A model generated the notes under the pieces. That model was not told where the DNA came from and searched no databases. It saw nothing but the letters and a program-made list of their open reading frames with translations. From the NCBI GenBank assembly GCA_002753465.1, contig PEAF01000001.1:69455-133454 (forward strand): DNA of 64,000 nucleotides, in the 5' to 3' direction. Positions 1,459 through 33,501 of this stretch are shown here, one piece after another. Within the stretch, counting starts at the first letter, position 1, and each line of letters opens with the position of its first letter. This stretch comes from Candidatus Omnitrophota bacterium (GTDB lineage: Bacteria > Omnitrophota > Gorgyraeia > Zapsychrales > Fredricksoniimonadaceae). The translations under genes were made by a program, and so were the position numbers.

Positions 1459-1543
1459 ATTACCTCCGCTGATTAATTTTAACCTTGAATATATATTACT
1501 TCTTTGGACGTTAGACAGCAAGACATTTAATTAAATGGTTTGA

Positions 1544-3024: not shown

Positions 3025-3045
3025 AAGTAATGTTAGCCGTATGTT

Positions 3046-4866: not shown

Positions 4867-4899
4867 CAGAACCTCATTTGGTTTAGGAACATGCGGGTT

Positions 4900-6390: not shown

Positions 6391-6502
6391 ATGCTATTAT
6401 CCGTAGATAAAGATTCATGTTTTTTCATTGTCTCGACAATGTCATCTGTTAAAATGATAAGAATTTGTATGAGAATTCCAGTAATCTTGAAAAGGATACA
6501 CC

Positions 6503-6937
6503 ATGAGTAAGGCGATCAGTAAAAAAGCTATTCAGGCCCCCACACACCTTAATGACCCTGTTGACTATAAGAAAGCTTTCTCCAGAGGTTTACGCGTTTC
6601 CCCGGGTAACAGGGATTTTATTTTTATGTCAGGCACTGCAAGCTTGAACAATAAAGGTGAAACTTGCCACAAAGGCAATTTCACGGCTCAGGCAAAACGT
6701 ACTTTTGAAAACCTGACTGCCCTTTTAAAATCAGAAAAAGCTGACTGGCACGACGTGATCCATACGCGCTGCTATTTAAAGAGCATGAAATATTATAAAC
6801 AATTCAATGATGTCAGAAATCAATTCTATCAAGATCAGGCGCTTGACCCGTTCCCTGCCAGTGTTTGTGTGCAAGCCGTTCTTTGCCGCCCTGAGTTGCT
6901 TGTTGAGATCGAACTTATTGCCATATTGAAGAAGTAA
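6503..6937 (+). CDS. RidA/YjgF/TdcF-family reactive-intermediate deaminase
   Basis: FMSGTASLNNKGE...AQAKRTFENLTALL...VIHTRCYLKSM...PASVCVQAVLCRPELLVEIELIA follows the YjgF/RidA pattern. AAAGGA SD. The 3' end overlaps the convergent gene by 23 nt. Confidence 0.8.
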   Translation: MSKAISKKAIQAPTHLNDPVDYKKAFSRGLRVSPGNRDFIFMSGTASLNNKGETCHKGNFTAQAKRTFENLTALLKSEKADWHDVIHTRCYLKSMKYYKQFNDVRNQFYQDQALDPFPASVCVQAVLCRPELLVEIELIAILKK

Positions 6938-8941: not shown

Positions 8942-8958
8942 ACTTGTTACCTCTCAAA

Positions 8959-10638: not shown

Positions 10639-10680
10639 CCCTGGTCATTGCGTGGCTTTTTGTGAAGGCTTCAGGAACGG

Positions 10681-11721
10681 CTAGTTGCCGCGACCCATAG
10701 GCTTTACGAAAGCATCCTTAAGCACATGCCCCTCATGGGCATGTGTCTTTAATTTCAACAATTGCACCACAGTGGCAAAAATATCAACATGATACATGCT
10801 GCGGTCAATGGTCACGCCTTTCTTGACGTCCGGCCCGAACATGTACAGCCACACATGCGAAGGATCATCATAGGCGTTCGTACTATGCTGCGCATAATAC
10901 GGATTCCTTTCGTGGTCCGGTGAAACAAAGAGATACGTGCGGTCCTTATAATAAGGATCGCTCTGAATCATTTGCCATATCTCATAAATATTCTGATCAC
11001 ATTTCTTCAGCGCTAAGACATAACTCGAGAACGTATCCGTGTGCGCAACCTCGACATCATACATAATGCTGTGAACGAACTTCGGCTTTGATGCCTTCAT
11101 GACCTTCTTGAACATGTCATACTGGATACGCCCGCCGCTAGCCCAGGAGATCCAGCTCAAATGATAATGGTTGCGAAGAATCTGCCACGTACGAATAAAA
11201 TCCCAGTCCTTGTCATCAAACAGGTTCTGCAGCTCAGGTGAAAGCCTGAACTCGTAGCCATGTATCCGGTCAGGCAAAGTATCCTGGCCCCATCCTTTGC
11301 CCGTATAAAAGAACTTGTCCTCATCACCTGAACCGCTGACCCAAACTTTGGAAGCGGGCCAATGAAATTGTTTCCTCAAATACTGGTAAACTGTCGGAAA
11401 TCGCAATGGGACGTCCAAATACTGCGTCCGGCCCGTGATAATGGCACAGATCGCCGGAGCATGAAATTCAAGGTTCTTCGCGACAAGGTCCGTATAGACA
11501 ACACCCTCCCGGGACATTTCGCCGAAGAGGTGCGGCATATACTGATGTGTCGGATCACCCACCGAATCGATGTTGCGGACCCCGGCCAGCGTGATGATGA
11601 TGATATTAGGAGAATCCTCCATCGATACCGGCGCGGACCATGCCGACCGGCTCAATGACAAAAGCAAGAAACCTGCCATTAAAACTGAACACCAGCGTTT
11701 GTTTGACATATGCCAGATCAC
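10681..11721 (-). CDS. Secreted alkaline-phosphatase-superfamily-like protein with atypical active-site positions
   Basis: Signal peptide (FLLLSLSRSAWSAP). NIIIITLAGVRN, HAPAICAIITGR, VSPDHERN and HVDIFATVVQLLKL mirror AP/NPP/sulfatase fold landmarks, but the usual Asp (DG) and the C/S-x-P/A-x-R nucleophile motif are absent. The GTG start at 11721 overlaps the upstream stop; an alternative ATG lies at 11709. Confidence 0.4.
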   Translation of the reverse strand: MIWHMSNKRWCSVLMAGFLLLSLSRSAWSAPVSMEDSPNIIIITLAGVRNIDSVGDPTHQYMPHLFGEMSREGVVYTDLVAKNLEFHAPAICAIITGRTQYLDVPLRFPTVYQYLRKQFHWPASKVWVSGSGDEDKFFYTGKGWGQDTLPDRIHGYEFRLSPELQNLFDDKDWDFIRTWQILRNHYHLSWISWASGGRIQYDMFKKVMKASKPKFVHSIMYDVEVAHTDTFSSYVLALKKCDQNIYEIWQMIQSDPYYKDRTYLFVSPDHERNPYYAQHSTNAYDDPSHVWLYMFGPDVKKGVTIDRSMYHVDIFATVVQLLKLKTHAHEGHVLKDAFVKPMGRGN

Positions 11722-14700
11722 CTTACCCCTAATGTCCTTAACAATTTCCCATGCACAGTAAATTCAAGTGCGTCCTTTGATTCCCCGAGCACGACCCTTT
11801 CAAAGCCGTAGGAACGCACCGGCCAACTTGCCAATGTCGTGGGAAGATGCTCCACGTATTGAATACTGCCATCCTTCAAGTTCAATCCAATGAACCGGGT
11901 CTCCACATTGACCCGGCGGATCTTAGGCAGGTTTTCCTCCGTGATGGCCTGTTTATCGCTGGTCACTGACATCATGAAATACATTGTGCCAGCCCTTTGC
12001 ACGTATTCAGAAAGGTTCCAAAAGAACCCGCCGAATTTCTTGATGTGCGCTGACCACCTTTTCTTGCCGGTCTTCATGTCCAGCGCCGTCAGAACGTATT
12101 GCCCGCCGACCATTTCGGGGGTGATCACCATATCATTGACCGTGTAAAGGAAATGGCAGCCCTTGGCTGGATAGGGGAAGTACGCCCGTCTCTTGGAATC
12201 ATCGAGTGCGTGACACCAGACCCTGACCATTTGCCCCTCCTTCATGACATACGCCTCCATTATCTTGAAAGGCTGCACGTCAAAAAGAAGATTTCCTGAC
12301 GTCTCGAACCTGTGCCGCCCTTCCTCAAGGTGTTTCTGGGCCGCCAAGACCCCTTTTTGCGGGTCAACGATATAAATGTCCGAATCAAAACGCAGGATGA
12401 GGTCCTTGCCCCAAAAATATAACTGCGGATGCGTCTGGTCGTTCTTGGAAAAATCAAGAGGAATCTCTTTGTCGATGGTCAGGTCCTCGTTCAGGACAAT
12501 GATCTTTTTTTTATCAAGGGTCAACAAAATGATCTGCCCGTTAAAAAGTGCCGCCTCGACAAATCCACCCCTTTTAAGCTCAATGGCCTTCTGGCAAAAC
12601 CCGCTTTTGATATCCAGGATCGAGAGCCGGTCCCTGTGCACCAGATAAATCTTATCACCCTTGATCATGGTCTGGTACATGGCTTTTTTAACAAACTGAG
12701 GCTGAATGCCATAGGTAGTAAAAAGCGGGGACATGTCCATAAGATAATTCTCCAGCGGAATATCCTCGTTCTCGTTCGTGGCGCTCCAAAGGTATTTTCC
12801 ATCACTGGCCCTCATTGCCACCACATTCACATGGTCATTGACGATGACCGTGTCTCCGGCCAGATACGCGTTCAGGTCATCGGCCATCAATCGCTTTTTG
12901 GTCAGGTCCCAATTATACTTGAACACCACATCCCGTGGCTCGGCACCTGGGCGATAGAACATCTTGCGCTGCCACAGGATCTTTCCTGACTCCTGCACAC
13001 AAAAAAGCTGATCATAGTTCCACACCAGAAAATACGGTGGTTGGGGCGTATCACCCACCCGGATCATCGGTAAAAGGTAAAGATAATTCCCAATAACTTT
13101 CAGGCTTTCGTTAGACGGTAAAACGGCCTGCGTTGCCACGGGCACCATCTCCTCCGGCAGCTTGATCAACCCATAGCCTGCCAGGAACCGGTCAAAGCGG
13201 ATCTTAATGCCAAGGTAATCAATGAACTTTTCCCCAAAGCGGTCCTTGAATATCTTCAGCAAATCGTTCCAGGACGGTTCCTTGAGCGCCCGCACATTCT
13301 TAATGATGATCGACGTTAAAGATTGCGGTGCGATATCAACGGTGGCTGCTGATCTCAAAAGTCCCGGGTGCACAGTTTCCACTTGGGCGCTTAACGATCC
13401 CGAAGCCAGTGCTTTGGAGAGGCCGTCCAGGAATTCACTGGCGGCATCGATTTTTTTCTCCACCCTGACGTTCACTCCGGCATTGACCGTAACTGTCTTT
13501 AGATAGTCCAGAGCTCTCAACCGCTGGTCCTTGCCGACGAACAGAAGGCCTCCCTCTGACGGCAACAGCCATCCGGGCACATCACAAGGGAATGCCCTAT
13601 GCACATCATGCCCATCCACATAACTCAAGAAATGCACCTGCGTGCCAAGCTTGAACACCATGGAGCGGTCATCTAAATAATCCACCCCGTCCAATACGCC
13701 CGGGGGTATGTCCTTGGCGAAAAGTTCGGCTCCGTTTTTAAGGTCCATGACGACGATGGCGGTCTTTTTGTCGTCACGGCTGTTTTTATTCACAAAGAAG
13801 GCCCGCCCATCCCTTGCACGCAACAGATAATATTTCTTGGTATCGATCAAAACCCTTTTTTTCTCCTCACCGCTCACCGGGTCTAATAAATACAAATAAT
13901 CAGATTCCCTGGGTTTGTAATACAACAAACCGTCATGGCCCAACTCGAGGGCCTGCGTGTCATACGGAACATTCGGAGCGTTAAAATACCCGACTCTGTG
14001 CATGTTCAATATGTAATAACTGACGCTGTACTTCTTCGGGATATACTTCTTGATCCAGGCGACCCGCCCCGTTTTGGCATCGATCTTCAGGAGGATCCCG
14101 TGGTTCGTGGCCAAATAGGCCTTCCCGCCCTCTAGCAAGGTTAATGAACTGGCAGCTGAGAGGAACGACGTGATCCCAATATAATCACTCCAGACCAGAT
14201 CACCGGTCTTTGTATCAAAACCACTGGCCCAAAGCTCCATCCGGGCATTGACCAAAATGACCACAACCACGCCTTCTGAGACTACCGGCCGCATCGCCAG
14301 GGCATATTCTCCCAGCCCTTTGGTCCAAACGATCCGGGGGGCGGTAACATCCTTAACATCGACGGCTACCAGATCATGGTTCAACTGTGCATACATGCCC
14401 CCGTCCTTCAAAAGGATGCCGTAACCGAACGGTCGCGTATCAGGTTCAGGCAAGGTCTGATAATATTCCTGCCCATTGCTGTCCCTGCCCGTCAGCGACC
14501 ACAACTCCTTGCCTGTCTTCAGGTCCTGACAAAATAAACGGTACAGGTTCCTGACAATGACCGTGCCTTGATAGACGACTGGTTCATACACGCTTTCGGG
14601 AAATTTCTTCCGGAACTGCCTCAAAGCCTGCGGAAAATGGTTGATGTGATCACTGGGGATTCTCACCTGCCAGCGCTCTTTCAAATCATCCGCCAACCCG

Positions 14701-15317
14701 TCCAACGACAATGCCGGGGCCTCCGGTCGGACGACCACAGACGGTTCTGCACTCTTTAACCCCTCAGCTGACCACAAGGACTCATTCCTCTGGACCCAGT
14801 CGTTCTTATGGGCGGTCAGCCGTAAATTATCAAAATAGAATTGTTCCGCCTCAGGGTCCAGTGCCTGGATCTGATGCTTGTTGGCATCCTCAGGATAAAA
14901 TGGAAAATGTGTTGCGGGAGGCGTATTATCTAAGTAGGTTTCCTCCACAGCGCAAAAAATCTCCTCGATCTGTTTTTTGCGTAATATTTTCTTGAGTGGA
15001 TCTTCCAGCAGCAAGGGGACATTGTTTTCCTTGGCATGCCCTAAGAGGTCCGACAGTTCATCATAAGGTGTATTTAATAACTTTTCTCTGGCATTAAAAT
15101 AGTCTAACAAGGTGCCATTCATCATCTGATGGCCTAAAGAAATAATTTCTCCAGGATCAACCGTAGAAAGGTCAGGTAATGTATTATTAGCGGGGTCAGC
15201 ACAAAATACTGGCAATGGGCAAAATAACAAAAGTGCACAAGTTGTGTAGATAAACCTGTGGCGTAAAATAGTTAATTTTAAGTATTTGAATAAATTAAGT
15301 TTCACTAATGACCGCAT
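11718..15317 (-). CDS. Large secreted PQQ-like (BamB-like) beta-propeller repeat protein, 1199 aa
   Basis: Hydrophobic N-terminal signal (ALLLFCPLPVFCADP). Blade signatures recur: TGKELWSL, TGDLVWSD, TGRVAWIKKY, SGKILWQRK, DGKYLWSA, TGKKRWSA. Confidence 0.7.
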   Translation of the reverse strand: MRSLVKLNLFKYLKLTILRHRFIYTTCALLLFCPLPVFCADPANNTLPDLSTVDPGEIISLGHQMMNGTLLDYFNAREKLLNTPYDELSDLLGHAKENNVPLLLEDPLKKILRKKQIEEIFCAVEETYLDNTPPATHFPFYPEDANKHQIQALDPEAEQFYFDNLRLTAHKNDWVQRNESLWSAEGLKSAEPSVVVRPEAPALSLDGLADDLKERWQVRIPSDHINHFPQALRQFRKKFPESVYEPVVYQGTVIVRNLYRLFCQDLKTGKELWSLTGRDSNGQEYYQTLPEPDTRPFGYGILLKDGGMYAQLNHDLVAVDVKDVTAPRIVWTKGLGEYALAMRPVVSEGVVVVILVNARMELWASGFDTKTGDLVWSDYIGITSFLSAASSLTLLEGGKAYLATNHGILLKIDAKTGRVAWIKKYIPKKYSVSYYILNMHRVGYFNAPNVPYDTQALELGHDGLLYYKPRESDYLYLLDPVSGEEKKRVLIDTKKYYLLRARDGRAFFVNKNSRDDKKTAIVVMDLKNGAELFAKDIPPGVLDGVDYLDDRSMVFKLGTQVHFLSYVDGHDVHRAFPCDVPGWLLPSEGGLLFVGKDQRLRALDYLKTVTVNAGVNVRVEKKIDAASEFLDGLSKALASGSLSAQVETVHPGLLRSAATVDIAPQSLTSIIIKNVRALKEPSWNDLLKIFKDRFGEKFIDYLGIKIRFDRFLAGYGLIKLPEEMVPVATQAVLPSNESLKVIGNYLYLLPMIRVGDTPQPPYFLVWNYDQLFCVQESGKILWQRKMFYRPGAEPRDVVFKYNWDLTKKRLMADDLNAYLAGDTVIVNDHVNVVAMRASDGKYLWSATNENEDIPLENYLMDMSPLFTTYGIQPQFVKKAMYQTMIKGDKIYLVHRDRLSILDIKSGFCQKAIELKRGGFVEAALFNGQIILLTLDKKKIIVLNEDLTIDKEIPLDFSKNDQTHPQLYFWGKDLILRFDSDIYIVDPQKGVLAAQKHLEEGRHRFETSGNLLFDVQPFKIMEAYVMKEGQMVRVWCHALDDSKRRAYFPYPAKGCHFLYTVNDMVITPEMVGGQYVLTALDMKTGKKRWSAHIKKFGGFFWNLSEYVQRAGTMYFMMSVTSDKQAITEENLPKIRRVNVETRFIGLNLKDGSIQYVEHLPTTLASWPVRSYGFERVVLGESKDALEFTVHGKLLRTLGVR

Positions 15318-15447
15318 AAGTCCCTCAACGTGAAGAAAGGAAAAACGAAATTTTTATATTTATAATATTAACTTAAAAATATAACAAAAATTAAAAATTA
15401 ATTATATTATTAACTATAAAATTTTTATTAACTTCAAAGTAAAAATC
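15318..15447. promoter_or_regulatory. Very AT-rich divergent promoter region with a thrice-repeated TATTAACT octamer
   Basis: A 130-nt gap between divergent genes. TATTAACT occurs at 15366, 15408 and 15426. The last roughly 30 nt (AAAATTTTTATTAACTTCAAAGTAA) are conserved upstream of the paralog at 18583-18612. There is no SD before the ATG at 15448. Confidence 0.4.
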
Positions 15448-16815
15448 ATGCTCGACCTGATCCTTATTAATGATTGTTATCGGCCAAACATCCCGTATTC
15501 TTTCGGAAAAATATATTTGTCTGATTTCTTAACTCGAAATGGATGGCGTGTTCGACTAATACAGCCTTGGGAGGTTTCGAAACTAGGCAGCAACCCAACC
15601 CGCTTTTTTGGTGTAGGCTCATGGAGTTTGGAATTTCATCATGTGGTTGCCACCGCAACGTCGTTAAAACAACGGTATCCTGGGATTCCTATCATTTGCG
15701 GCGGTGGGCATGTTACTGTTTGTCCTTTTGACCTCCAGGAACATGCCATGATCTTTGACTACTGGGTTTTAGGTGAAGGTGAAGTGGCTGTCCATGAGAT
15801 ACTTCAAGGACAGCATAAAACACGAGTGCCTATCATACGACCCGTGCCTCAAAAGGATCTGCTCCCGCCTAATACCGCTCACAATCCGGTATCCAATGGT
15901 TCGTATACCAGCATTGCATCCCGTGGATGTCCCCATATTTGCACATTTTGCAATACACATAAAATGTTTGGCCATAACGTGCGCAGCATCGCCTTAGATA
16001 AATATCTGCAGCACTTGAGGGACCTTTTAAACCAGGGAATGGTGACGCTTAGCTTCAGGGATAGCAGTTTCCTCAATGATATTGATTGGGCTACTGGCTT
16101 TTGCGCGGCCGTTCTTAAAGAAAAGCTTCAGTTCAACTGGCTTATGAATTGCTGTGCAGAACAGTTAACTGAAGAAAGAGTATTAATGATGAAAAGAGCC
16201 GGATGCATAGGGGTTACGATCGGTGTTGAATCAGGCGCCCCGTCGATCCTGAAAATGATGAAGAAAGCTGCCGGGCTTAATGAAATGAAGAGAGGCATCA
16301 GTTTGTGCAAAAAGTATAATATCCATACGCATCTTAACCTTATGTACGGCGTTCTCGGCGAAACGCGTGAAACCATGGCTGCCACGCGGGAGTTCTATCA
16401 GCAAACAAAACCTGATTCGAAAACACTGGCCTTGTATGAGCCGTTTCCCGGAACGGCAATGTTTGAAGAGGCGGAACAGAAGAAATTCTTAAGCCCTTAC
16501 AATTGGGGTAAAGGACAGCCAGCTAAATTATTGTTTACGGGATCTATGGCCAGAGATGAAGTGATCAGAGAAGCTGACCGGCTTTGGAGCACCGGCCCCT
16601 TTCATCAGTATCTCCGCGTCGCCAAGCTTGAAAATAAGCTGATCTTTCTGCCGAGCGTATTTATACGTGTCATTTTGTTAAGGCTTCTTACCTGGCGCTT
16701 CCCTTTAACAATTCTGTCAAATCATCCGGCTTTTGAACCTTTGAAAAGGACATGGGATAATTACAGGATTGATCTGATCGGCCGTATACAACTTTATTTA
16801 TATCTCTCCGCGTAA
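15448..16815 (+). CDS. B12-binding-domain radical SAM enzyme (class B type), paralog A
   Basis: SFGKIYLSDFLTRNGWRVRLIQ is the B12-type N-domain and SRGCPHICTFCNT the radical SAM motif. The C-terminal segment is hydrophobic (LIFLPSVFIRVILLRLLTW). Clear paralog of 18627-20003. Confidence 0.85.
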   Translation: MLDLILINDCYRPNIPYSFGKIYLSDFLTRNGWRVRLIQPWEVSKLGSNPTRFFGVGSWSLEFHHVVATATSLKQRYPGIPIICGGGHVTVCPFDLQEHAMIFDYWVLGEGEVAVHEILQGQHKTRVPIIRPVPQKDLLPPNTAHNPVSNGSYTSIASRGCPHICTFCNTHKMFGHNVRSIALDKYLQHLRDLLNQGMVTLSFRDSSFLNDIDWATGFCAAVLKEKLQFNWLMNCCAEQLTEERVLMMKRAGCIGVTIGVESGAPSILKMMKKAAGLNEMKRGISLCKKYNIHTHLNLMYGVLGETRETMAATREFYQQTKPDSKTLALYEPFPGTAMFEEAEQKKFLSPYNWGKGQPAKLLFTGSMARDEVIREADRLWSTGPFHQYLRVAKLENKLIFLPSVFIRVILLRLLTWRFPLTILSNHPAFEPLKRTWDNYRIDLIGRIQLYLYLSA

Positions 16816-16861
16816 TCATTGTTGGTGAAATGCCTTGATCTGGGCAGGGATAAGTTTGTTG

Positions 16862-18502
16862 TTAATGGTATAAACTCTTTTTGTAATGCCCGATAAAAAC
16901 CCCGTCATGTTCAAGAGAATCTACCAGGACGTAATCCTTAGTGATAACTTCTTTGACTGCAAAGAAATTATTTCCAAAGAAATCATCATTTTCCCATGAC
17001 GATCCGACCAGCCAGAAACTTTCGGGATCCCACGTTGCTTTGCTGATTTTGATATGTCGATCAGGGTAGATCAATCCGTAAAGGGTTTGTTTATCATCGA
17101 ATTTTGTGTCAAATGACCAGCGCTGAAAATACTCCAGGTCAAAGGGTGACAGCAGTTCAGGATAAAACATAATAACGCGTTGTCCTGCGAGCATATTTTG
17201 GGCAGATAAAACTCTATAAAGAAATAACGATGCTTGTATATCCGTTACAACAACCTTTTCATCAGACCTTAGATTATCGGCAACGTGCTTCATCAAGGGC
17301 ATATATCGTTTGTGTTCATGTACCCCTGGATAAAAGTCACGTCCCCCCGTCACATGAAGGATGGTTCCCTGCTTGTAATTCAGCCAACCCAAGATAAGAA
17401 ATATTGCTAAAAAGGCAATAAGAAGTACCCGGCCCCACTTTTGCTGAAAGCTGATGATCCCGTATACCAGGATCATATAGAAGAATGGTGAGAAAATAAT
17501 AAGATGCCTGGCGATGAAAACTGGCGTAAAAAGTGTCGCAAGGCATAAAACGCTAAGTAAAGGAACCACGGTTAGAAGAGAAAGAATCGTGAATTTATGA
17601 CGATCATTGGTGTATAAAAAATGCATTCCCCGGAATAAAAGGCCCCAGCAAAGAAAGCCTCCCGCCCAGAGTTGCCAGGGTTGAGATAAATATCCTCCGA
17701 TAAAAATGCCTGGAAGTGATATGAAATCAGAAAAAGACGGTGAATGTAGCCAGAATTTGCCCTGGCTTAATGAGGAGATCTGTTGTGCGATCATAGGAAA
17801 TTGAATAATGCTAAGCAATGTTGCTATGACCACAAATGGCCAGAGTGCAGAAAAAGAAGCTTTTTTCCTATCGCAGATGTATTCAAGGAACAGGAAGATT
17901 ATAAACACAGAAAAATAAGAAAACATCACGGCAATAGCGCTGGTAATAAGAAATCCTAACAACCACATGCGATTATGGTGTTTTCTTAGACGAAGGTAGG
18001 CGTAAACAGCTAAAAGGAAGAAGAAGCAGAAAGCTGTAAATCCACGTGCCTGCTGAGCATACCAAATATGAAATGAACTGGCGGCCATGATCGCTACCGC
18101 ACCTAAACTTTCAGGTCTGCTCATGAATTTTCTAGTCACTCTGTAAAAGAGCCATAATGATGCGATTCCCCAGAAAACAGAAAGGGCGCGCAAAGCCATT
18201 TGATCCGGAAATAGCATGCTGAAACAATAGACAAATAAATAGTAAAGAAAAGAATGGTAATCAAAAGACAGTAACCGGATAAAATAGCCGGATAGCGTCG
18301 CCGGCAAATGAAATTCAGGGGCAATTGATCGGGAAAGATTAAAGTGTTCCAGTACTTCTTGATGGGTGTATTGAATTGTTGTGAGTTCATCAAACCAGAA
18401 ATCATAACGATCCAGCGCATGGACCCTGAGGATAAACCCGGCCAAAACGATCAACGTTAGAAGCCAGCAGTATAGTATTCGTCGTGACATCAAGTTATCC
18501 AT
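16862..18502 (-). CDS. GT-C fold membrane glycosyltransferase (PMT_2/ArnT-like), paralog A
   Basis: Multi-TM protein with the loop motif FWFDELTTIQYT and FHIWYAQQARGF, plus a C-terminal soluble domain. Paralog of 20008-21645. Confidence 0.7.
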   Translation of the reverse strand: MDNLMSRRILYCWLLTLIVLAGFILRVHALDRYDFWFDELTTIQYTHQEVLEHFNLSRSIAPEFHLPATLSGYFIRLLSFDYHSFLYYLFVYCFSMLFPDQMALRALSVFWGIASLWLFYRVTRKFMSRPESLGAVAIMAASSFHIWYAQQARGFTAFCFFFLLAVYAYLRLRKHHNRMWLLGFLITSAIAVMFSYFSVFIIFLFLEYICDRKKASFSALWPFVVIATLLSIIQFPMIAQQISSLSQGKFWLHSPSFSDFISLPGIFIGGYLSQPWQLWAGGFLCWGLLFRGMHFLYTNDRHKFTILSLLTVVPLLSVLCLATLFTPVFIARHLIIFSPFFYMILVYGIISFQQKWGRVLLIAFLAIFLILGWLNYKQGTILHVTGGRDFYPGVHEHKRYMPLMKHVADNLRSDEKVVVTDIQASLFLYRVLSAQNMLAGQRVIMFYPELLSPFDLEYFQRWSFDTKFDDKQTLYGLIYPDRHIKISKATWDPESFWLVGSSWENDDFFGNNFFAVKEVITKDYVLVDSLEHDGVFIGHYKKSLYH

Positions 18503-18626
18503 TTAATCATAGAGGATAAGATTAAGGGTTTCGACTTTCTTTGTGAAGGCTTGATTTTACTTCAAGTTATGATTTATGTTAATATATAAAAAATTTTTGA
18601 TAACTTAAAGTAACTTGATCTCACCC
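18503..18626. promoter_or_regulatory. Divergent promoter region of the second cassette copy
   Basis: An AT-rich gap that contains AAAATTTTTGATAACTTAAAGTAAC, matching the leader of the first copy. Confidence 0.35.
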
Positions 18627-20003
18627 ATGCTCGATCTGATCCTGATCAATGATTATTCTCGCCAACACCAACCGTTTTCTTACGGTAAAATATGTTTGAC
18701 CGAGTTCCTGGTCCATAAAGGATGGAGAGTTCGTCTCATACAACCGGATGAAATCTTCAGGTTAGGACATGATCCAGCCCGATTCTTTGGTTTAGGTTCA
18801 TGGAGTTCGGACTTCCACCGTGTTGTTGAGACGGCAAATTTCTTAAAGAAAAACTACCCTAAAGTTCCGGTTATTTGCGGGGGAGGTCACATTACGGCCT
18901 GCCCTGGCGAACTTCAAGCATACACTGACATTTTCGATTATTGGGTTTTAGGCGAAGGTGAAGTGGCTCTTCACGAGATCCTTCAAGGACAGCATCAACC
19001 CCGTACCCTGATCACAAGACTTGTTCCTGAACAGGACCTGCTCCCCCCCTCTATCGCCCATAGTCCGATCATGAATGGTTCGTATATCGGTATTGCTTCC
19101 AGAGGATGTCCGCATGCCTGCACATTTTGCAACACGCATACCATGTTCGGTCATAAGACGCGCAATATTCCGATCGAAAAATATTTGCCGTTCCTGAAAG
19201 ATCTTATCCGTAAAGGTATGGTGACGCTCAGCTTCAGAGATCCGAGCTTTCTTAATAATATAAACTGGGCGACTGATTTTTGTACGGCCGTCGTCAAAGA
19301 AGATATTAAATTCAATTGGCTTGCGAGCTGTTGTGCTGAGCAATTAACAGAAGAACGGGTCTTAATGATGAAAAGAGCGGGTTGTATTGGTATTACGATA
19401 GGTGTTGAGTCAGGATCCCAGGCGATGTTGAACATTATGCATAAAACAGCCGGTCTGAGTGAAATGAAGAAAGCCATCAGTCTCTGCAAGGGTAATAAAA
19501 TCCATACACATCTTAATCTTATGTATGGGATCGTTGGTGAAACATATGAAACTATGGCTGCCACACGTGAGTTCTGCCGGCAAACAAAGCCGGACTCGAG
19601 GACACTTTTTTTATACGAGCCGTTTCCAGGAACTGTAATGTTTAGTGAGGCAGAAAGAAACAACCTATTAAGCCCTTATAACTGGGTTAAAGGAAAAATG
19701 CCTCAGCTATTGTCAACAGGGTTTATGACAAGGGCTGAGGTCATAAAAGAGGCTGATCGTCTTTGGCATACCGGTCCTTTTCATCAGTACCTCCGTAATG
19801 CGAATTTGAAGATGAACATGCTCTTTGTGCCTGGCGTTTTGGTTCGAGTTGTTCTTTTAAAGATCCTTTTGTTGTTGAACCAACGCCCCACCCATGTAAA
19901 CCCTCGGCCTTTAAATAGATTTCAACAAGTATGGCAAACTTACACGATCAACTTAATAGGTAAGATCCAAATATATTTACATATTTCTTTATTAAGTACA
20001 TGA
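18627..20003 (+). CDS. B12-binding-domain radical SAM enzyme (class B type), paralog B
   Basis: SRGCPHACTFCNT. I moved the start to ATG 18627 because MLDLILIND matches the N-terminus of paralog A; the track's 18615 start is a TTG. Confidence 0.85.
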   Translation: MLDLILINDYSRQHQPFSYGKICLTEFLVHKGWRVRLIQPDEIFRLGHDPARFFGLGSWSSDFHRVVETANFLKKNYPKVPVICGGGHITACPGELQAYTDIFDYWVLGEGEVALHEILQGQHQPRTLITRLVPEQDLLPPSIAHSPIMNGSYIGIASRGCPHACTFCNTHTMFGHKTRNIPIEKYLPFLKDLIRKGMVTLSFRDPSFLNNINWATDFCTAVVKEDIKFNWLASCCAEQLTEERVLMMKRAGCIGITIGVESGSQAMLNIMHKTAGLSEMKKAISLCKGNKIHTHLNLMYGIVGETYETMAATREFCRQTKPDSRTLFLYEPFPGTVMFSEAERNNLLSPYNWVKGKMPQLLSTGFMTRAEVIKEADRLWHTGPFHQYLRNANLKMNMLFVPGVLVRVVLLKILLLLNQRPTHVNPRPLNRFQQVWQTYTINLIGKIQIYLHISLLST

Positions 20004-20007
20004 AGAT

Positions 20008-21645
20008 TTAGTCAGGCAATATTTTCCTTTTATAGTGCCAGATAAGAACACCATCACGGCTTAGAAATTCTGTTGCGACATAATCTTTAGTAATAAAATC
20101 TCTTACGGCAAGAAAGTTCTTACCTAAAGTAAGATCTTTATCCCACGAAGATCCGATCAACCAGAAACTGGCAGGATGCCATGTTCTCTTGTCGATCATA
20201 ATGTGTTGATCAAAACGAAGCAGTCCGTAAAGCGCTGTCATATTATCCAGTTTTGTGCTCATTGACCAACCCCGGAACGATTCAAGCTCGAAGGGCTCCA
20301 AGAGACCCGGGTAAAGCATGACGATCCTTTGTCCGGCATCCAGGATAGCGGAAGGTAATACCCTGCGAAGGAATATTGTTGCCTGCATATCAGTTGCAAC
20401 AATTTTTTCGTCGGGCTGTAAATTATCTTTAATATGTTTAATTAGTGCGACATACTGCTTTCGTTCATGTATGCCCGGATAGAATTCCCCGCTTCCTTCT
20501 TTATAAAATACTGAACCTTGTCTGAAATTGATCCAGCCGAAAAATAAGAGTATAAATAAAATAAAAGTTACTAGAATGCGAGGCCATTTCATTGGAAAGG
20601 ACAAAATACCATAAACAAATATGATGTAAAAGAATGGAGAAAATATTATAAGATGTCGTGCTATAAAAATTGGGTTGAAGGTCCGCGAGGATAAAAAGAT
20701 CAAGAGGACCGGGAAGATTGTAAGAAGACAAAGGGTAATGAATTTATTCTTATCGGTATTTTTATGTAAGAAACACAATCCTCGCCATAAAAGCAACCAG
20801 AAAATTACGATCCCAGCCAACAACTGCCAGCGCTCAGACAGATATCCTCCGACACAAATAACTGGAAAGAAAATAAGATCACCCGTAGATGGAGGAGGTA
20901 GCCAGAACCGACCATGACTTAGGCACCCGATTTGTTGTGAAATTATCGGTCCTAGAAGAATGGCGGCACCGGTCAATACGAGCCCAATCAGCCAGGAAAA
21001 TGAAAAATAAGAGTTTTGTTTCAGGGTCTTTTTACGGGTAAGCAACAAGCCGAATATGAAAATTGCGTAATACGTAAACATAACGGCTGTAGCAGCTGTA
21101 ACCAGGAAGGCAAACCACCATAAACGACTAGAATGTTTTTTCATGCGAAGGAAACAGTACACAGCTAAAAGAAATAAGAAGCAGAAGATAGTATATCCGC
21201 GCGCCTCCTGAGCATACCAAATATGAAAAGAACTGCCGGTCATGATGGCCACAGCCATCAAGCTTTCGGGTTTTTCAAGAAAGTATCTGGTCACCCGGTA
21301 TAAGATCCATAATGATAAAATACCCCAGAATGTTGAAAGATACCGCAAGGCCATTTCATCAGGAAATATGCTGCTAAAACCATATATCATTAAGTAGTAT
21401 AAAGGCGGTTGGTAATCAAAATGCGCCGAACGCCAAAAATACCCTGCCACAGTAGTTGGAAAGTGAAATTTAGGATCAAATGAGTGAGACCGGGCCAAGG
21501 TCATCGACACTTCATGGTTGGTGTATTGAATAGTCGCTAATTCATCGAGCCAGAACTCAGAACGTCTTATATCATAAGTCCTTGCCAGAAAACCTGCCAA
21601 AATGAGGAAAAATAAAATGAGGCTGTAAATGATGCGGGATGACAT
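20008..21645 (-). CDS. GT-C fold membrane glycosyltransferase (PMT_2/ArnT-like), paralog B
   Basis: FWLDELATIQYT and FHIWYAQEARGY, multi-TM. Its stop lies only 4 nt from the stop of the convergent radical SAM gene. Confidence 0.7.
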   Translation of the reverse strand: MSSRIIYSLILFFLILAGFLARTYDIRRSEFWLDELATIQYTNHEVSMTLARSHSFDPKFHFPTTVAGYFWRSAHFDYQPPLYYLMIYGFSSIFPDEMALRYLSTFWGILSLWILYRVTRYFLEKPESLMAVAIMTGSSFHIWYAQEARGYTIFCFLFLLAVYCFLRMKKHSSRLWWFAFLVTAATAVMFTYYAIFIFGLLLTRKKTLKQNSYFSFSWLIGLVLTGAAILLGPIISQQIGCLSHGRFWLPPPSTGDLIFFPVICVGGYLSERWQLLAGIVIFWLLLWRGLCFLHKNTDKNKFITLCLLTIFPVLLIFLSSRTFNPIFIARHLIIFSPFFYIIFVYGILSFPMKWPRILVTFILFILLFFGWINFRQGSVFYKEGSGEFYPGIHERKQYVALIKHIKDNLQPDEKIVATDMQATIFLRRVLPSAILDAGQRIVMLYPGLLEPFELESFRGWSMSTKLDNMTALYGLLRFDQHIMIDKRTWHPASFWLIGSSWDKDLTLGKNFLAVRDFITKDYVATEFLSRDGVLIWHYKRKILPD

Positions 21646-21648
21646 TAA

Positions 21649-22419
21649 TTATACCTTAGTGCATCTGGCGGTAATGAACCAACCGGTGAACGATCTTGTA
21701 TTTTTATTTCTGTCTAAGAAATCTGCGAAGCGCGTAAAGAATATGGCTGTTTTCATAAGAAGATCAGTTGATAGGGACCCTCGCAAGAGTTTTAGGATCG
21801 AATTTGATGGATTGATTATATGCACCACAACAGCATATTCTTTGGCCATCAATCCAGCCGACTTTAAGTGACGGTCAAGTTCATGCGGGGTGTAAAACTG
21901 AACCGGCCCGGTTCCTTTTACCAACCAACTTTCAATAGTAAGCCAAAAACAGAAATTAAAATTACATTTGTTGTTCATAGCTAATAAAATAGTGCCGTCA
22001 GGTTTAAGCACCCTGCGGAGTTCTTTCAAGGCGCGGGTTAATTCATCTGAACGCTTAAAATGATCAAGGGTGGACGTAGACAGTATCAGGTCAAAAGTAT
22101 TATCCTTAAAAGGAAGGTGGCGTACATCGCCGTTGATATAAGCCTGGTCTTTTTTTGATCGCTCCTTGCGTATAAGATCTGCCTGGACAACCGTTGAGAG
22201 GCAGATATCAATAGCATAAAACTGTGATCCCTTGCCATTCAGTGAAAAAAGAAGTTCATCTTCCCCATAGGCTTCTTCACGCAGATCAGTCTTAAGCACC
22301 GTCATTTTATCAGTACTTATTCCCCAGGCTTGAAGTATTTTCCTGAATTGATCGGATTTATAGCGGCCAAGAACCGGATCAATATGTGAAAGTGCTTTCT
22401 TCGAAACATTGCACGTCAT
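21649..22419 (-). CDS. Class I SAM-dependent methyltransferase
   Basis: FDLILSTSTLDHFKRSDELTRALKELRRVLKPDGTILL follows the Methyltransf_11/25-like pattern. Start is set at ATG 22419 (TGATATG junction with the upstream stop at 22421) rather than the track's 22473. Confidence 0.75.
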   Translation of the reverse strand: MTCNVSKKALSHIDPVLGRYKSDQFRKILQAWGISTDKMTVLKTDLREEAYGEDELLFSLNGKGSQFYAIDICLSTVVQADLIRKERSKKDQAYINGDVRHLPFKDNTFDLILSTSTLDHFKRSDELTRALKELRRVLKPDGTILLAMNNKCNFNFCFWLTIESWLVKGTGPVQFYTPHELDRHLKSAGLMAKEYAVVVHIINPSNSILKLLRGSLSTDLLMKTAIFFTRFADFLDRNKNTRSFTGWFITARCTKV

Positions 22420-22420
22420 A

Positions 22421-23839
22421 TCAGTGCCCTTTGGATACGTTGCACAGGATACGCGCATATTTCTGCAGGCCATACCGGAAGCCCTTTAATCCTGTAGGGT
22501 ATAATCTGAAAAATGATACGTAACCATCCCATAACCAGAAAATATAGGCGTAGAATTTGCCCCAGGGATAATGGATCATTTTACGTATCATCGGCCACAG
22601 CCAGGGGAATTCAACAGCCACAGCAAATAATTTATGAAGGTTTTCGACAGCAAGTTTCTCTTTATTATTAGTGTGAATTATATGCGAATGCCATTCAGAC
22701 CAGGCATGATCCTGCGCTAATAAACCTTTCTCCAAACAATATTCACGAATAGCGGTCTGCGGGTACGGCATCAGTAATTTAACAGTACAGTAATCCACAT
22801 GGCATTGCCAGTTAAGATGAAGTGTTGCAATATCATCCTGCAAAGTTCCTTCGGGGATCCCTAGAATATTAGTTGTTTCTAGCTTTAAGCCGGCTTTCTT
22901 AATGATCCGTGCCGCATCAATAATATCCTGTTTAGACATGCCGCGGTTCAAAACACGACGGCGCAGATCATCATTGGCAGTTTCCAGCCCGATTGAAATG
23001 GTTACACAGCCTGACTTTTTAAGGTATCCGATCATCTCTTCATTGACCAGTTCAACACGTATGTAACAAGAAAACGGGATATGCACATGTTGGGAGTATT
23101 GTTCAGCAAATCGTCGTATCCACGTTATATCAGATGCAAAAAGATCATCTTCGAACATTATAAATGCCACCCGCGCTTTAGTGCATGTTTGCCGGATCTC
23201 CAGGATCACATTCTCGACGCTTCTCCGGCGAACTTTTTTAGAGCTAACGCCATAAAGCTGGTTAAAGGGCGGATGCGAACAATAGGTACATTCAAAAGGG
23301 CAACCGCGGCTTGTCAGCACATGCATCTTACCTTTATGGAATGTTTCGTTCTCTTGAAACAGTTCTCTGTCAGCAAAAGGGAGTGTATCCAGGTTATCAA
23401 TCAAAGGCCTTAACGGGTTCTTAAAAACTATACCATTGTCTTTTACCCATAAATTGGATATCCCTGAAATCGGTTTTCCCGATTCCATGGCATTGGCTAA
23501 TTCAAGGAAAGCGTGTTCTCCTTCCCCGATACACACACAGTCCACCCCATCTTCATAGATCACTTCAGGAACATAGGTAGGATGAGGACCTCCCCAGATT
23601 GAAAAAACTTTGAATTGCGCTTTGATCTTTTTGTTCAATATGAGGTAATCCTGAGCGTAAATGGTCGGAACGCTAAAGGCTATGATCGAAAATGGTTTAT
23701 GCGATAATCTGGCAGCAACTTTGTCAAATATCGACTCAACGATCTCAACCGTATGCCCGGCATCTTTTAATATCCTCGAAAGGAGCATGATGCCCAGGTG
23801 TTCTATATCGCCATGTTTAACAATAAATAAGATATTCAT
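22421..23839 (-). CDS. B12-binding-domain radical SAM enzyme (class B type)
   Basis: MNILFIVKHGDIEHLGIMLLSRILKDAGHTVEIVES, SRGCPFECTYCSH, and an aromatic/hydrophobic C-terminal tail (FYAYIFWLWDGYVSFFRLY). The start abuts the upstream stop (TAAATG). Confidence 0.85.
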   Translation of the reverse strand: MNILFIVKHGDIEHLGIMLLSRILKDAGHTVEIVESIFDKVAARLSHKPFSIIAFSVPTIYAQDYLILNKKIKAQFKVFSIWGGPHPTYVPEVIYEDGVDCVCIGEGEHAFLELANAMESGKPISGISNLWVKDNGIVFKNPLRPLIDNLDTLPFADRELFQENETFHKGKMHVLTSRGCPFECTYCSHPPFNQLYGVSSKKVRRRSVENVILEIRQTCTKARVAFIMFEDDLFASDITWIRRFAEQYSQHVHIPFSCYIRVELVNEEMIGYLKKSGCVTISIGLETANDDLRRRVLNRGMSKQDIIDAARIIKKAGLKLETTNILGIPEGTLQDDIATLHLNWQCHVDYCTVKLLMPYPQTAIREYCLEKGLLAQDHAWSEWHSHIIHTNNKEKLAVENLHKLFAVAVEFPWLWPMIRKMIHYPWGKFYAYIFWLWDGYVSFFRLYPTGLKGFRYGLQKYARILCNVSKGH

Positions 23840-24877
23840 TTACGATATTTTCGCTTCATTAGAAGAAACGGTGTCTGTTTGAGGTTTTTGACGCATAATG
23901 CAATCAGAACTATTGAATTGATCAAGGTAGGGATGTTTTTTCATGCGCGACCAAATGGTTTTCAATTGTTCTGTACGAATATTGCCGGTAGTGAATGGAA
24001 CAAAGCAGCATGGTTGTACATCCCCGTAAGGAGAAACATAGAGCATTTTCTTTAACACAGCATTGCATTCAGTAAACTTGTTACAAACGCCTTCAATATA
24101 AACAAAAAGTGGATCAAGCAAATCTTTCACAATTTGCTTTTCCTGCGCGTTTAAGATCACATTCTTGCAGCCAAGCCATTTGCCGGCTGGGATGGAAAGC
24201 AGGATGCGAACGCCGTGAGCGCTCCTATTTCGGGCAAGTTCTATAATCGCCTTCAAATCACCGTTTTGAATATTCAGACTTGTCGCATATGTAGAGAAAA
24301 TAACAGGGATACCGGCAGCAACACAGGATTGTACAGCTTCCATGGCTTTTTTGAAAATTCCTGGTGATCCTCTTAAAGCATCATGGACTTCGGCGATGGC
24401 GCTATCGACGCTGATATTAATAAAATTAAGGCCTTTTTGTTTTAAGACAGCCGCATAGCCACTGGTGAGCAAAAGACCATTGGTACTTAACCCCGTTACC
24501 ATGCCCAGATCATTGGCATAAGCAATGCATTCCGGCAGATCTTTTCTCAGTAATGGTTCCGCCCCGGCAAAAACTACAAAATAAACGCCAAGGTCCGAGG
24601 CTTGACGCAGTATGGCGTATATTTCCTGTAAAGTTAATTCCGTCGCATTCTGCCGGCTTTGACCATGTATGCCGCAATGCTCACAACTGAGCTGGCAATG
24701 ATATGTAACGCCAATTTCCAGCGATTGAGGAATGCCGGTTCCCCGCCAGGCAGAAACAGTTTTTTTAAACAATACGATAATTTTGGCATGTAAGGGCAAA
24801 GCACGAAAGAAAAGTTCATAATGATATTTCTTCAGTTCAAGCCATCGCCCGATGAACGTTTGATTTGGGTGCTTCAT
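23840..24877 (-). CDS. Radical SAM enzyme with a twitch-like (half-SPASM) C-terminal motif
   Basis: TYHCQLSCEHCGI supplies CxxxCxxC, followed by GAEPLL. The C-terminus has C-x13-G-x4-C (CNAVLKKMLYVSPYGDVQPC) but no CX2CX5CX3C. Confidence 0.8.
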   Translation of the reverse strand: MKHPNQTFIGRWLELKKYHYELFFRALPLHAKIIVLFKKTVSAWRGTGIPQSLEIGVTYHCQLSCEHCGIHGQSRQNATELTLQEIYAILRQASDLGVYFVVFAGAEPLLRKDLPECIAYANDLGMVTGLSTNGLLLTSGYAAVLKQKGLNFINISVDSAIAEVHDALRGSPGIFKKAMEAVQSCVAAGIPVIFSTYATSLNIQNGDLKAIIELARNRSAHGVRILLSIPAGKWLGCKNVILNAQEKQIVKDLLDPLFVYIEGVCNKFTECNAVLKKMLYVSPYGDVQPCCFVPFTTGNIRTEQLKTIWSRMKKHPYLDQFNSSDCIMRQKPQTDTVSSNEAKIS

Positions 24878-24908
24878 TTTTATGCCTTAAATAATTCTTA
24901 TCAGTAAC

Positions 24909-25985
24909 TCACGGGATCAGCGTACGAAAAACCTTGTCCAGTAATTCTGAAAAACTTTCTTTGGAACATCCTCTCATAACGCGGCAGAACATTTTGTCAC
25001 AGGTGGACATCTTTTGAAGTTTCTGTCGGGTTAAAGGGTCACGCCAAATATCATTCAATGATCGTTTGGAAAGATTTCCAATAGAATCCGGTATAAAAGT
25101 ACAAGGGTAAACGTCACCCTGCTCCATAACCCACAAATGATTGCCGAGGGCTTTACATGTACGTAAACGCTCTTGTACCGGGTGATTAAAATAATCCTTC
25201 ATCCGTTCCAATTGACCGTATGGATCAATGATAAATTTATTACTGCGCTTTAATGCGCACAAATTATCAATGATACGATCTACTTTGAGTTTGTCATCGG
25301 GGAAAAGTTCGTTTTCTGACTTAAACTGATGGTTCCTGCCCACACCCGTCATGTCGATGACACCTTGAAAGGAAATGGCAATACGACGCTGTTTGGCAAA
25401 ATCAGCAAGGGGCAGTATCTCATCAAGGTTTGATTTCATGATCGTTGTATTGATCTGAAGGGGGACTTTACGCACTAAAAGGTCGATGGCCGACATGACC
25501 TTGTCATACGTTCCTTTTACCCCCCTCATCGTGTCATGCGTTTCCGGGTTAAGCCCATCCAGGGAAATCTGTAGCATGGAAACTTTGTTGCGTATTAACA
25601 CGCCGGCTGCTTTGGCATTGATCAAGGAGGCATTCGTTGTAATGACAATGCCAATATTATGATGAGCAGAGAATTCAACCAGTTCCAGAAAATCCTTTCT
25701 AAAGAATGGTTCTCCTCCGTAAAAACGCAAGAAACAAGGGCCAACAGATTTTTTAATGTCTAAAATGATGTCCCGCCACTGGTGGGTAGACAACTCCTCC
25801 TTAATTTCATGCTTCCACATGGAACATTGCTGGCAACGCAAATTACACTTATGGGTCAACCGGATATCAATTAGATTCGGTGGCTGGCTAAATGTAATCC
25901 CCTGCAGTTGATCAAGGATCTGTTTCTTGGCGACACTAACGCCGCAATGAAGAAGCCGTGATAACCCTGAATGCGCTCGCATCAT
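24909..25985 (-). CDS. Radical SAM enzyme with a SPASM-like C-terminal domain
   Basis: THKCNLRCQQCSM and GGEPFF. The C-terminus has C-x12-G-x4-C (CKALGNHLWVMEQGDVYPC) plus the non-canonical CDKMFCRVMRGC. Confidence 0.8.
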   Translation of the reverse strand: MMRAHSGLSRLLHCGVSVAKKQILDQLQGITFSQPPNLIDIRLTHKCNLRCQQCSMWKHEIKEELSTHQWRDIILDIKKSVGPCFLRFYGGEPFFRKDFLELVEFSAHHNIGIVITTNASLINAKAAGVLIRNKVSMLQISLDGLNPETHDTMRGVKGTYDKVMSAIDLLVRKVPLQINTTIMKSNLDEILPLADFAKQRRIAISFQGVIDMTGVGRNHQFKSENELFPDDKLKVDRIIDNLCALKRSNKFIIDPYGQLERMKDYFNHPVQERLRTCKALGNHLWVMEQGDVYPCTFIPDSIGNLSKRSLNDIWRDPLTRQKLQKMSTCDKMFCRVMRGCSKESFSELLDKVFRTLIP

Positions 25986-25996
25986 AAAAGAACCTC

Positions 25997-33491: not shown

Positions 33492-33501
33492 GCGCGCTCC
33501 T

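Follow-up and report, generated by a model that had tools for sequence, protein, structure and literature searches.

We analyzed a 64-kb window of a genome of Candidatus Omnitrophota bacterium (GenBank assembly GCA_002753465.1, contig PEAF01000001.1, positions 69,455 to 133,454), assigning genes from an open reading frame (ORF) map and Pfam; coordinates below are those of the window. It contains two neighboring copies of a convergent gene pair, in which a class-B radical S-adenosylmethionine enzyme (rSAM), that is, one with a B12-binding domain, is encoded on the plus strand and a glycosyltransferase with a predicted GT-C fold on the minus strand. The first copy consists of rSAM_A (15448-16815, +, 455 aa) and GTC_A (16862-18502, -), a member of an Omnitrophota-type PMT_2-like GT-C subfamily whose ORF gives 546 aa and whose start best backed by homology, the ATG at 18490, gives 542 aa. 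The second consists of rSAM_B (18627-20003, +, 458 aa), the paralogue of rSAM_A, and GTC_B (20008-21645, -, 545 aa), the PMT_2 paralogue of GTC_A. GTC_B is the final gene of a minus-strand operon, is preceded by a TAAGG Shine-Dalgarno (SD) sequence and starts 3 nt past the stop codon of a methyltransferase gene. A leader, TTATATTATTAACTATAAAATTTTTATTAACTTCAAAGTAA (15402-15443, +), ends 4 nt before the ATG of rSAM_A and has no SD; its second copy (18574-18613) lies in the divergent intergenic region between GTC_A and rSAM_B (18491-18626), together with four TAACTT hexamers. The stop codons of rSAM_A and GTC_A are separated by a 46-nt gap with no terminator (16816-16861), and those of rSAM_B and GTC_B by just 4 nt, AGAT (20004-20007), as had been stated in an earlier note made from the sequence of the window.

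One ancient tandem segmental duplication copied the whole convergent cassette plus ~45 nt of upstream DNA. The earlier note had described two units of the same architecture, each with an rSAM converging on a GT-C gene, and the ORF map and collinear blastn matches agree: 15402-16689 aligns with 18574-19868 (71%), and 16876-18409 with 20025-21564 (65%). The repeat unit is ~3.15 kb, and the two units (15402-18502 and 18574-21645) are collinear, adjacent and in the same order and orientation, with DNA homology starting 46 and 53 nt upstream of the respective rSAM ATGs. In BLASTP alignments, rSAM_A and rSAM_B are identical at 292 of 454 positions (64%) without gaps, and GTC_A and GTC_B at 290 of 542 (54%), each with an E-value of 0. 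Both pairs align over their full length, so the similarity does run from end to end, and the identities that had been counted by eye, 39 among the first 60 residues of the rSAMs and 37 among 51 in the GT-C block PESL...W, were exact on recount.

In a search covering 5.8 billion protein clusters, the A and B copies were mutual closest relatives for both genes. The next relative of the rSAMs is a protein (P0022, locus L005) that is 53% identical to rSAM_A and also to rSAM_B, and the next GT-C relative beyond the pair is only ~30% identical. GTC_A and GTC_B are sisters in a neighbor-joining tree of 51 members of the GT-C subfamily, where their nearest outgroup is the GT-C of locus L004. We found no close relative of the cassette in a scan of species-representative genomes, in which the best match was ~30% identical; genomes with an HtpG 75-90% identical to that of the window have no GT-C more than 30% identical. 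The three HtpG homologues used for taxonomy, 90%, 77% and 75% identical to the window protein, are named Candidatus Omnitrophota.

We consider the duplication ancient because synonymous sites are close to saturation. By the Nei-Gojobori method, the proportion of synonymous differences (pS) is 0.695 for the rSAM pair and 0.688 for the GT-C pair, with dS of 1.97 and 1.87, dN of 0.238 and 0.358, and dN/dS of 0.12 and 0.19, respectively, the ratios being upper bounds given the near-saturation. Identity at third codon positions is 0.49 for the rSAMs and 0.46 for the GT-Cs. The earlier note had proposed this estimate as a check, and the ratios show purifying selection; judged from their sequences, both copies of both genes are intact and have been kept under it. 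As an evolutionary event, the duplication is ordinary and would come as no surprise to a specialist.

The DNA just before the two rSAM start codons had also been noted to be related. We found that ~41 nt of the leader (15402-15443 versus 18574-18613) are ~80% identical, an alignment score that none of 1000 shuffles reached, and that the distal 70-85 nt of the two intergenic regions are indistinguishable from random in a global alignment. Gene conversion as the source of the leader similarity was rejected: there is no recent gene-conversion tract, and the adjacent codons do not have reduced synonymous divergence (pS is not lowered in the first 60 codons beside the leader). Since the similarity is accounted for neither by leftover homology nor by recent conversion, the leader appears to be under constraint, and it is probably a functional cis-element, such as a conserved promoter/5' untranslated region (UTR). 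It is AU-rich, folding predicts no structure in either copy, the 14-23 kb region has no credible Rfam match, and the element was not found elsewhere in the window. The simplest reading would be a core promoter followed by an unstructured, AU-rich 5' UTR without an SD. That the leader is more conserved than neutral sites fits the common regulation of the two units that had been suggested for it.

Two further observations on the intergenic DNA held in part. Neither rSAM_A nor rSAM_B is preceded by an SD, as claimed, but the accompanying statement that most other genes here have GGAGG-type SDs is wrong: an SD core of at least 4 nt at a sensible spacing precedes 18 of ~40 genes in the window (~45%). 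The octamer TATTAACT does occur three times in the first gap (at 15366, 15408 and 15426), but this is within local chance, the gap being 85% AT and some 8-mer occurring at least three times in 27% of dinucleotide shuffles; we rejected it as a significant feature.

The hexamer TAACTT is a different matter. Four copies, two in each direction (18492 and 18564 on the minus strand, 18601 and 18611 on the plus strand), fall within 147 nt between GTC_A and rSAM_B (P ~2e-4), and no other 150-nt window in the 64 kb has three or more. Two more copies are found in the first gap, upstream of rSAM_A. An inverted pair of 13-mers (18557-18569 and 18601-18613) in the same region is marginal (4 of 100 shuffles), the hexamer clustering being the sturdier statistic. 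The TAACTT repeats are candidate operators that could place both rSAMs under the same control, together with the divergent GTC_A in the case of the second gap. On the minus strand, a promoter-like site (18582->18554) matches at 10 of 12 positions.

Scans for intrinsic terminators gave counts at or below the shuffled expectation and none at either convergent junction. RNA folding also gave no significant hairpin at either junction (z-scores of -0.02 and -0.78 for the 46-nt gap). With neither terminator nor hairpin at these sites, it is reasonable to think that the convergent transcripts may plausibly overlap at their 3' ends.

The B12-binding domain (PF02310) scores 41.1 bits in rSAM_A and 34.1 bits in rSAM_B against a cut-off of 32.1, and the Radical_SAM domain scores 67.5 bits in rSAM_A. 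At residue 161 is the CxxxCxxC motif, CPHICTFC in rSAM_A and CPHACTFC in rSAM_B, and C161, C165 and C168 are invariant in the rSAM alignment; the intact motif shows both proteins to be, as far as their residues tell, catalytically equipped. An AlphaFold2 (AF2) model of rSAM_A (predicted local distance difference test score, pLDDT, 84) matches the folds of TsrM, AprD4, MgmA, TokK, CysS and OxsB with E-values of 1e-20 to 1e-15. TsrM is the top match by E-value, and AprD4 is the best full-length structural match (TM-score 0.70). AprD4 shows that membership in class B does not guarantee cobalamin binding and methylation, and we know of no diagnostic sequence motif for these properties in class-B rSAMs. 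Among NCBIfam models, the best match of rSAM_A, below the cut-off, is HpnJ, an enzyme that acts on membrane-lipid-linked glucosamine. Scores against cut-offs were 83-101 (best 100.6) versus 577.6 for HpnJ, 103.8 versus 600 for PhpK, 84.9 versus 481 for BchE, 79 versus 500 for AprD4, and 81.8 (range 75-107) versus 360 for TIGR04072. By hydropathy, rSAM_A (residues ~396-416), rSAM_B (~396-419) and P0022 all have a transmembrane-like hydrophobic segment near the C-terminus, which the model renders as long helices after a low-confidence linker. This hydrophobic helix would tail-anchor the rSAMs at the membrane.

The GT-C proteins score on either side of the PMT_2 (PF13231) cut-off of 26.1 bits, GTC_B at 38.1 and GTC_A just under it at 25.4. 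An AF2 model of GTC_A (pLDDT 84, predicted template modeling score 0.87) has the GT-C fold, with a multi-pass N-terminal membrane domain and a predicted periplasmic C-terminal domain, and its top 44 Foldseek matches in the PDB are all GT-C enzymes with probability 1.00, including STT3/PglB, ALG12/9, ArnT, Pmt4, AftA/B, Emb and PimE. The ArnT structures (5ezm/5f15) match at the level of the fold only, with ~10% identity; the subfamily profile has no sequence-level match to any PDB chain, ArnT included, and the GT-Cs have no NCBIfam assignment. An acidic motif, D34-E35, is invariant in 16 of 16 subfamily members, including both paralogues; it follows the first helix, and the model would place it in the first periplasmic loop. 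All 19 subfamily-invariant columns are kept in GTC_A and GTC_B. GTC_A has two private changes, E147Q and S318A, at positions conserved in 14 of 14 relatives; residue 147 is Gln in GTC_A but the Glu of the IWYAQEAR signature in all 15 other aligned subfamily members. GTC_B has the private change Y374F, where the other 15 keep Tyr. Such changes match the pattern that would be expected for divergence of specificity and not for decay, and we regard E147Q in GTC_A and Y374F in GTC_B as candidate specificity-changing substitutions.

The cassette lies in a gene cluster of ~25 kb (roughly 3.0-28.4 kb) bounded by rsmH and glgE. The GC content of the cluster is 0.415-0.435, compared with 0.463 in the flanks; lower-than-flank GC is typical of surface-glycan loci. 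All genes of the cluster are on the minus strand except rSAM_A, rSAM_B and a RidA gene, and the minus-strand order is B12-rSAM_E, two SPASM rSAMs, B12-rSAM_D, the methyltransferase, GTC_B, GTC_A, the propeller gene, a sulfatase/metalloenzyme-like gene, a GINT1_N protein, a pyridoxal phosphate (PLP) enzyme, a SPASM rSAM, B12-rSAM_C and GTC_C. Altogether there are five class-B rSAMs, three SPASM rSAMs and three GT-Cs among ~20 genes, and each of the three GT-Cs has a B12-rSAM as an immediate neighbor. The duplicated cassette lies precisely where two conserved modules meet. One (21649-27415, -) comprises the methyltransferase (Methyltransf_11), B12-rSAM_D, two SPASM rSAMs and B12-rSAM_E. The other (10681-15317, -), divergent from rSAM_A, comprises a 1199-aa secreted PQQ_2/BamB-like propeller protein and the sulfatase/metalloenzyme-like protein. 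The third adjacency of a B12-rSAM and a PMT_2 GT-C (3046-6390, -) is co-directional, with rSAM_C at 4900-6390 and GTC_C at 3046-4866, and it is unrelated to the duplicated cassette: rSAM_C is only 26% identical to rSAM_A/B, and the 27% identity between GTC_C and GTC_B is confined to the N-terminal 194 aa. By hydropathy, rSAM_C also has a hydrophobic tail.

Some other features of the window are worth recording. The RidA/YjgF gene (Ribonuc_L-PSP, 6503-6937, +) lies inside an apparent intergenic gap, its 3' end overlapping a convergent SPASM rSAM gene (6915-8015) by 23 nt, and a RidA gene is also found with the giant propeller gene in both L004 and L007. The remainder of the 64 kb holds genes unrelated to the cluster. 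These include three AsrABC-type anaerobic sulfite reductase-like genes (32520-35323 and 31729-32493, both -; NIR_SIR, FAD/NAD-binding and Fer4_22 domains) adjoining a formate/nitrite-family transporter and a hemerythrin-domain protein; downstream of two PAS/Cache histidine kinases, a type II/IV secretion ATPase (41580-43718, -; T2SSE and MshEN) with a response-regulator receiver domain fused to its C-terminus; and an apparent operon (44814-49530, -) of a CMAS-like methyltransferase, a GT4 glycosyltransferase and a 755-aa protein without a Pfam match.

To see how the two gene families are arranged elsewhere, a profile of the GT-C subfamily was run over 185,579 species-representative genomes. 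The full-length members that it returned were almost only from Omnitrophota, with some in bins labeled Planctomycetales or Planctomycetia. A separate, exhaustive profile search gave at least 150 full-length representatives at 50% identity, so the subfamily is of modest size. A word-indexed protein search gave only 19 GT-C relatives, and the rarity of the subfamily judged from that search alone would be misleading. In 845 kb around 54 subfamily GT-Cs there are 58 B12-rSAM ORFs, 11 of them directly adjacent (within 300 bp) and 28 within 5 kb, whereas the 505 kb surrounding 38 distant GT-Cs (Chloroflexota, Actinomycetota and other phyla) contained none. An rSAM next to a GT-C is seen again, in several orientations and beside GT-Cs of unrelated families, in L001, L005, L018/L029, L021, L035, L047, L057, L062, L089 and L091, the convergent layout being found elsewhere only in L035. 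The neighboring modules recur too: orthologues of the methyltransferase, rSAM_D and SPASM genes, 42-53% identical, adjoin subfamily GT-Cs in L001, L024, L026, L033 and L036, and orthologues of the propeller and sulfatase-like genes do so in L004 and L007. In these last two loci (L004, 5754-9726; L007, 17340-21654) a propeller of 1000-1200 aa is followed by the sulfatase/metalloenzyme-like protein, a pair conserved in several Omnitrophota; in L004 a large polyketide synthase (PKS) gene adjoins the pair.

P0022 is the only orthologue of rSAM_A/B, and its GT-C neighbor in L005 is 23% identical to GTC_A. This locus (753-11413; the same as L006) is a one-strand array in the order rSAM-GTC-rSAM-rSAM-GTC-rSAM, in which the middle B12-rSAMs (660-670 aa) are tandem paralogues with 72% identity and the last gene is the rSAM_A/B orthologue. 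An rSAM was thus duplicated alone in L005, and a GT-C was duplicated alone in L020 (37% identity). L018 (2192-6827) and L029 (2228-6866) have a common rSAM-GTC-rSAM triad. The GT-C seems to evolve faster than its rSAM neighbors, because between these two loci the rSAMs are 92% and 88% identical and the GT-C 65%, and likewise in the window the figures are 64% for the rSAMs and 54% for the GT-Cs.

The next-nearest relatives of rSAM_A/B (26-31% identical) are found in polysaccharide clusters with Wzx, Wzy, UDP-galactopyranose mutase (GLF), NeuB, GT2, GT4 and methyltransferase genes. In two of three such clusters, genes in the order GT4, B12-rSAM, GT2 converge on a PMT_2 GT-C of a different family; these are L089 (6743-12755) and L091 (3608-9749), Wzx/GLF clusters in which the GT-C is a ~775-aa protein with PMT_2 and DUF5648. 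To judge from the gene order, this rSAM branch is here associated independently, for a second time, with GT-Cs, now those of a different family. GT2-like genes are present in 26 of 46 subfamily loci and stand directly beside the rSAM in L089-L091, and related Omnitrophota loci have sugar-pathway genes of the GT2, GT4, formyltransferase and asparagine-synthase types. Our literature searches found no relevant published association of rSAM and GT-C.

The linkage between rSAM and GT-C genes thus appears real at the level of the cluster, with exchangeable partners. The earlier note had proposed a functional pair that duplicated and diverged. The single cassette duplication, the divergence and the cluster-level linkage in other genomes all stand, but a strict, co-evolving one-to-one pair is not supported: direct adjacency is found in only ~20% of cases, and a test of low power showed no co-evolution of the two proteins. 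The reading as a functional pair thus has partial support only.

The best-supported model, to which we would give slightly less than an even chance, is that the cassette is a tailor-and-transfer module of envelope-glycan synthesis that was duplicated and then specialized. It is suggested by the GT-C fold, the membrane tail of the rSAMs, the sugar-pathway genes in related loci and the precedents of AprD4 and HpnJ. GT-C superfamily enzymes normally use lipid-linked donors, so the fold implies donors of this kind here. Under the model, the cluster would build or decorate an envelope glycoconjugate. The rSAM, which its hydrophobic C-terminal helix would keep on the cytoplasmic side of the membrane, would carry out a radical modification of a sugar, most plausibly on a polyprenyl-phosphate carrier, by C-methylation, deoxygenation or rearrangement, and the neighboring GT-C would then glycosylate its acceptor in the periplasm from the lipid-linked sugar. 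After duplication the two modules may have specialized for two related sugars, positions or acceptors, by analogy with embC/A/B and the serotype-converting gtr genes. The pairing would be modular and not obligate, rSAM and GT-C partners having been swapped among Omnitrophota clusters over deep time. A stronger version, in which membrane-anchored class-B rSAMs tailor polyprenyl-phosphate-linked sugars that dedicated GT-Cs deliver, with the leader and TAACTT repeats as a dedicated switch, we consider unlikely.

A number of results weigh against these interpretations. The window has no GtrB/ArnC-like GT2, nor any other GT2-like ORF, and no recognizable flippase in a survey of the cluster that was systematic for ORFs of at least 150 aa, and without such a loader or flippase the source of the lipid-linked donor is unaccounted for. 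The rSAMs fall below every curated NCBIfam equivalog cut-off, with scores 5- to 7-fold short. In the clade of rSAM_A, rSAM_B and P0022, residues that are invariant in relatives are replaced (E189, the second D of FxDDxF, P303 and R236) and a segment near residue 129 is missing, losses that suggest changed substrate binding or chemistry. As for the pairing, a directly adjacent B12-rSAM is found beside 11 of 54 subfamily GT-Cs (~20%), with mixed subtypes, and part of the B12-rSAM enrichment could reflect the phylum Omnitrophota and not the GT-C. A Mantel test on 13 adjacent pairs gave rho -0.14 (P = 0.82), a test of low power with distances near saturation. On the regulatory side, the leader element was not found upstream of the orthologue P0022, and counts of sigma-70 promoter-like sites, which are uninformative in AT-rich DNA, are not above those of shuffled sequence.

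The same data can be read in other ways. The two genes may have been neighbors by chance in a crowded cluster, working in the same pathway without being a dedicated pair, and may have been duplicated together as passengers, each copy then being kept independently for dosage or sub-functions. The low and heterogeneous adjacency, the Mantel result, the solo duplications in L005 and L020, and the rSAM_A/B orthologue whose GT-C neighbor shares just 23% identity with GTC_A are all as this explanation would have it, and with five B12-rSAMs and three GT-Cs in ~20 genes a chance adjacency is not rare. It has more difficulty with the B12-rSAM immediately beside each of the three GT-Cs of the window, with the fact that purifying selection has kept all four genes since a duplication of such age that synonymous sites are saturated, and with the recurrence of rSAM-GT-C adjacency in several orientations with unrelated GT-C families; a membrane-type tail on the rSAM also suits a membrane partner or substrate. 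On balance we find this reading rather unlikely, but one to be kept in view.

Two further explanations keep the functional connection and change the substrate, and we regard each of them as improbable. If the substrate were a protein, the rSAMs would act on a ribosomal peptide or on a protein that is secreted, such as the giant propeller, and the PMT_2 GT-Cs would O-glycosylate that protein in the periplasm. The five class-B rSAMs, three SPASM rSAMs and methyltransferase do resemble the tailoring sets of ribosomally synthesized and post-translationally modified peptides (RiPPs), there is weak NCBIfam similarity to ApyD and RiPP C-methyltransferases, PMT_2 is a family of protein O-mannosyltransferases with PglB/STT3 and Pmt4 among the fold matches, and the 1199-aa secreted propeller protein is a conserved neighbor. 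However, there is no candidate ORF for a precursor peptide in the gaps of the cluster, the one sizeable gap encoding RidA, and both the Wzx/Wzy polysaccharide clusters that hold the nearest relatives of rSAM_A/B and the GT2, GT4, formyltransferase and asparagine-synthase-type genes of related loci point toward sugars. If the substrate were instead a polyprenyl, hopanoid-like or polyketide-derived membrane lipid, the rSAMs would alkylate or cyclize it and the GT-Cs would add head-group sugars, giving an Omnitrophota glycolipid. Partial similarity to HpnJ, HpnR and TIGR04072 (the 'lipid biosynthesis B12-binding/radical SAM' family), the PKS and acyl carrier protein beside the nearest GT-C outgroup in L004, the ketoreductase in L007, and the hydrophobic tails of rSAM_A, B and C would agree with this. 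Set against it are the NCBIfam scores far under the cut-offs given above for TIGR04072 and HpnJ, a cluster without lipid-synthesis genes in the window, and the usual dependence of GT-Cs on lipid-linked donors; to our knowledge, GT-C enzymes do not normally draw on nucleotide sugars to form the head groups of glycolipids.

Widespread and often ultra-small, the Omnitrophota are for the most part uncultivated; next to nothing is known of their envelope chemistry, and their genomes are rich in radical SAM genes without a known role. We have found that class-B and SPASM radical SAM genes systematically surround one GT-C subfamily of the Omnitrophota type, and that rSAM/GT-C units can duplicate, persist for a long time and carry their own conserved cis-element. 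The part worth following is this uncharacterized association of class-B rSAMs with the GT-C subfamily. If the rSAMs act on lipid-linked sugars as we propose, they would bring to GT-C glycosylation pathways a chemistry that is new there and would be of interest for making C-modified sugars, and an rSAM combined with a GT-C would serve glycan diversification as a module that can be duplicated and exchanged. If they do not, the locus is still a clear but ordinary case of a duplication followed by divergence within a surface-glycan cluster.

Among known systems, the Arn (ArnA-ArnT) and Gtr pathways are similar in having a GT-C transferase with an acidic motif in its first periplasmic loop, encoded in a group with enzymes by which the sugar is prepared or tailored ahead of its transfer, and in related Omnitrophota loci small GT2 genes and a formyltransferase stand beside the rSAM and GT-C. 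Modules of the gtr type have been duplicated and exchanged, diversifying surface glycans. Unlike these systems, the window has GT-Cs that match ArnT in fold and not in sequence and that lack an NCBIfam assignment, and it lacks the GT2 loader and, with the limit on small ORFs given above, a recognizable flippase. The putative tailoring enzyme here is a class-B radical SAM, which we did not find described for such systems in the literature. With AprD4, the GenK/Fom3-type methylases and HpnJ, rSAM_A and rSAM_B share an N-terminal Rossmann B12-binding domain and a CxxxCxxC radical SAM barrel, from which they differ by their own substitutions, a C-terminal hydrophobic extension and the 5- to 7-fold shortfall in score.

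In complete genomes of Omnitrophota, hypervariable loci have been found to carry glycosyltransferase genes for lipopolysaccharide or capsule and polysaccharide-biosynthesis genes as cargo (preprint, 10.64898/2026.06.07.730766). The preprint describes no rSAM/GT-C modules; the cassette here is lineage-specific, and the GC content is under that of the flanks.

The mycobacterial embC-embA-embB genes offer another comparison. The Emb proteins are about twice as long and are only distantly similar (TM-score 0.3-0.4), and their donor-modifying enzymes are flavin/NADH oxidoreductases that were not duplicated together with the GT-C. Emb, AftA and AftB are nevertheless among the fold matches of the window GT-C, and in both cases tandem GT-C paralogues have been retained, those of Emb having diverged in specificity. 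The donor sugar of the Emb system is modified by DprE1/E2 on a lipid carrier, decaprenyl-phosphate, and we propose that the same may hold for the duplicated cassette of this Omnitrophota genome.

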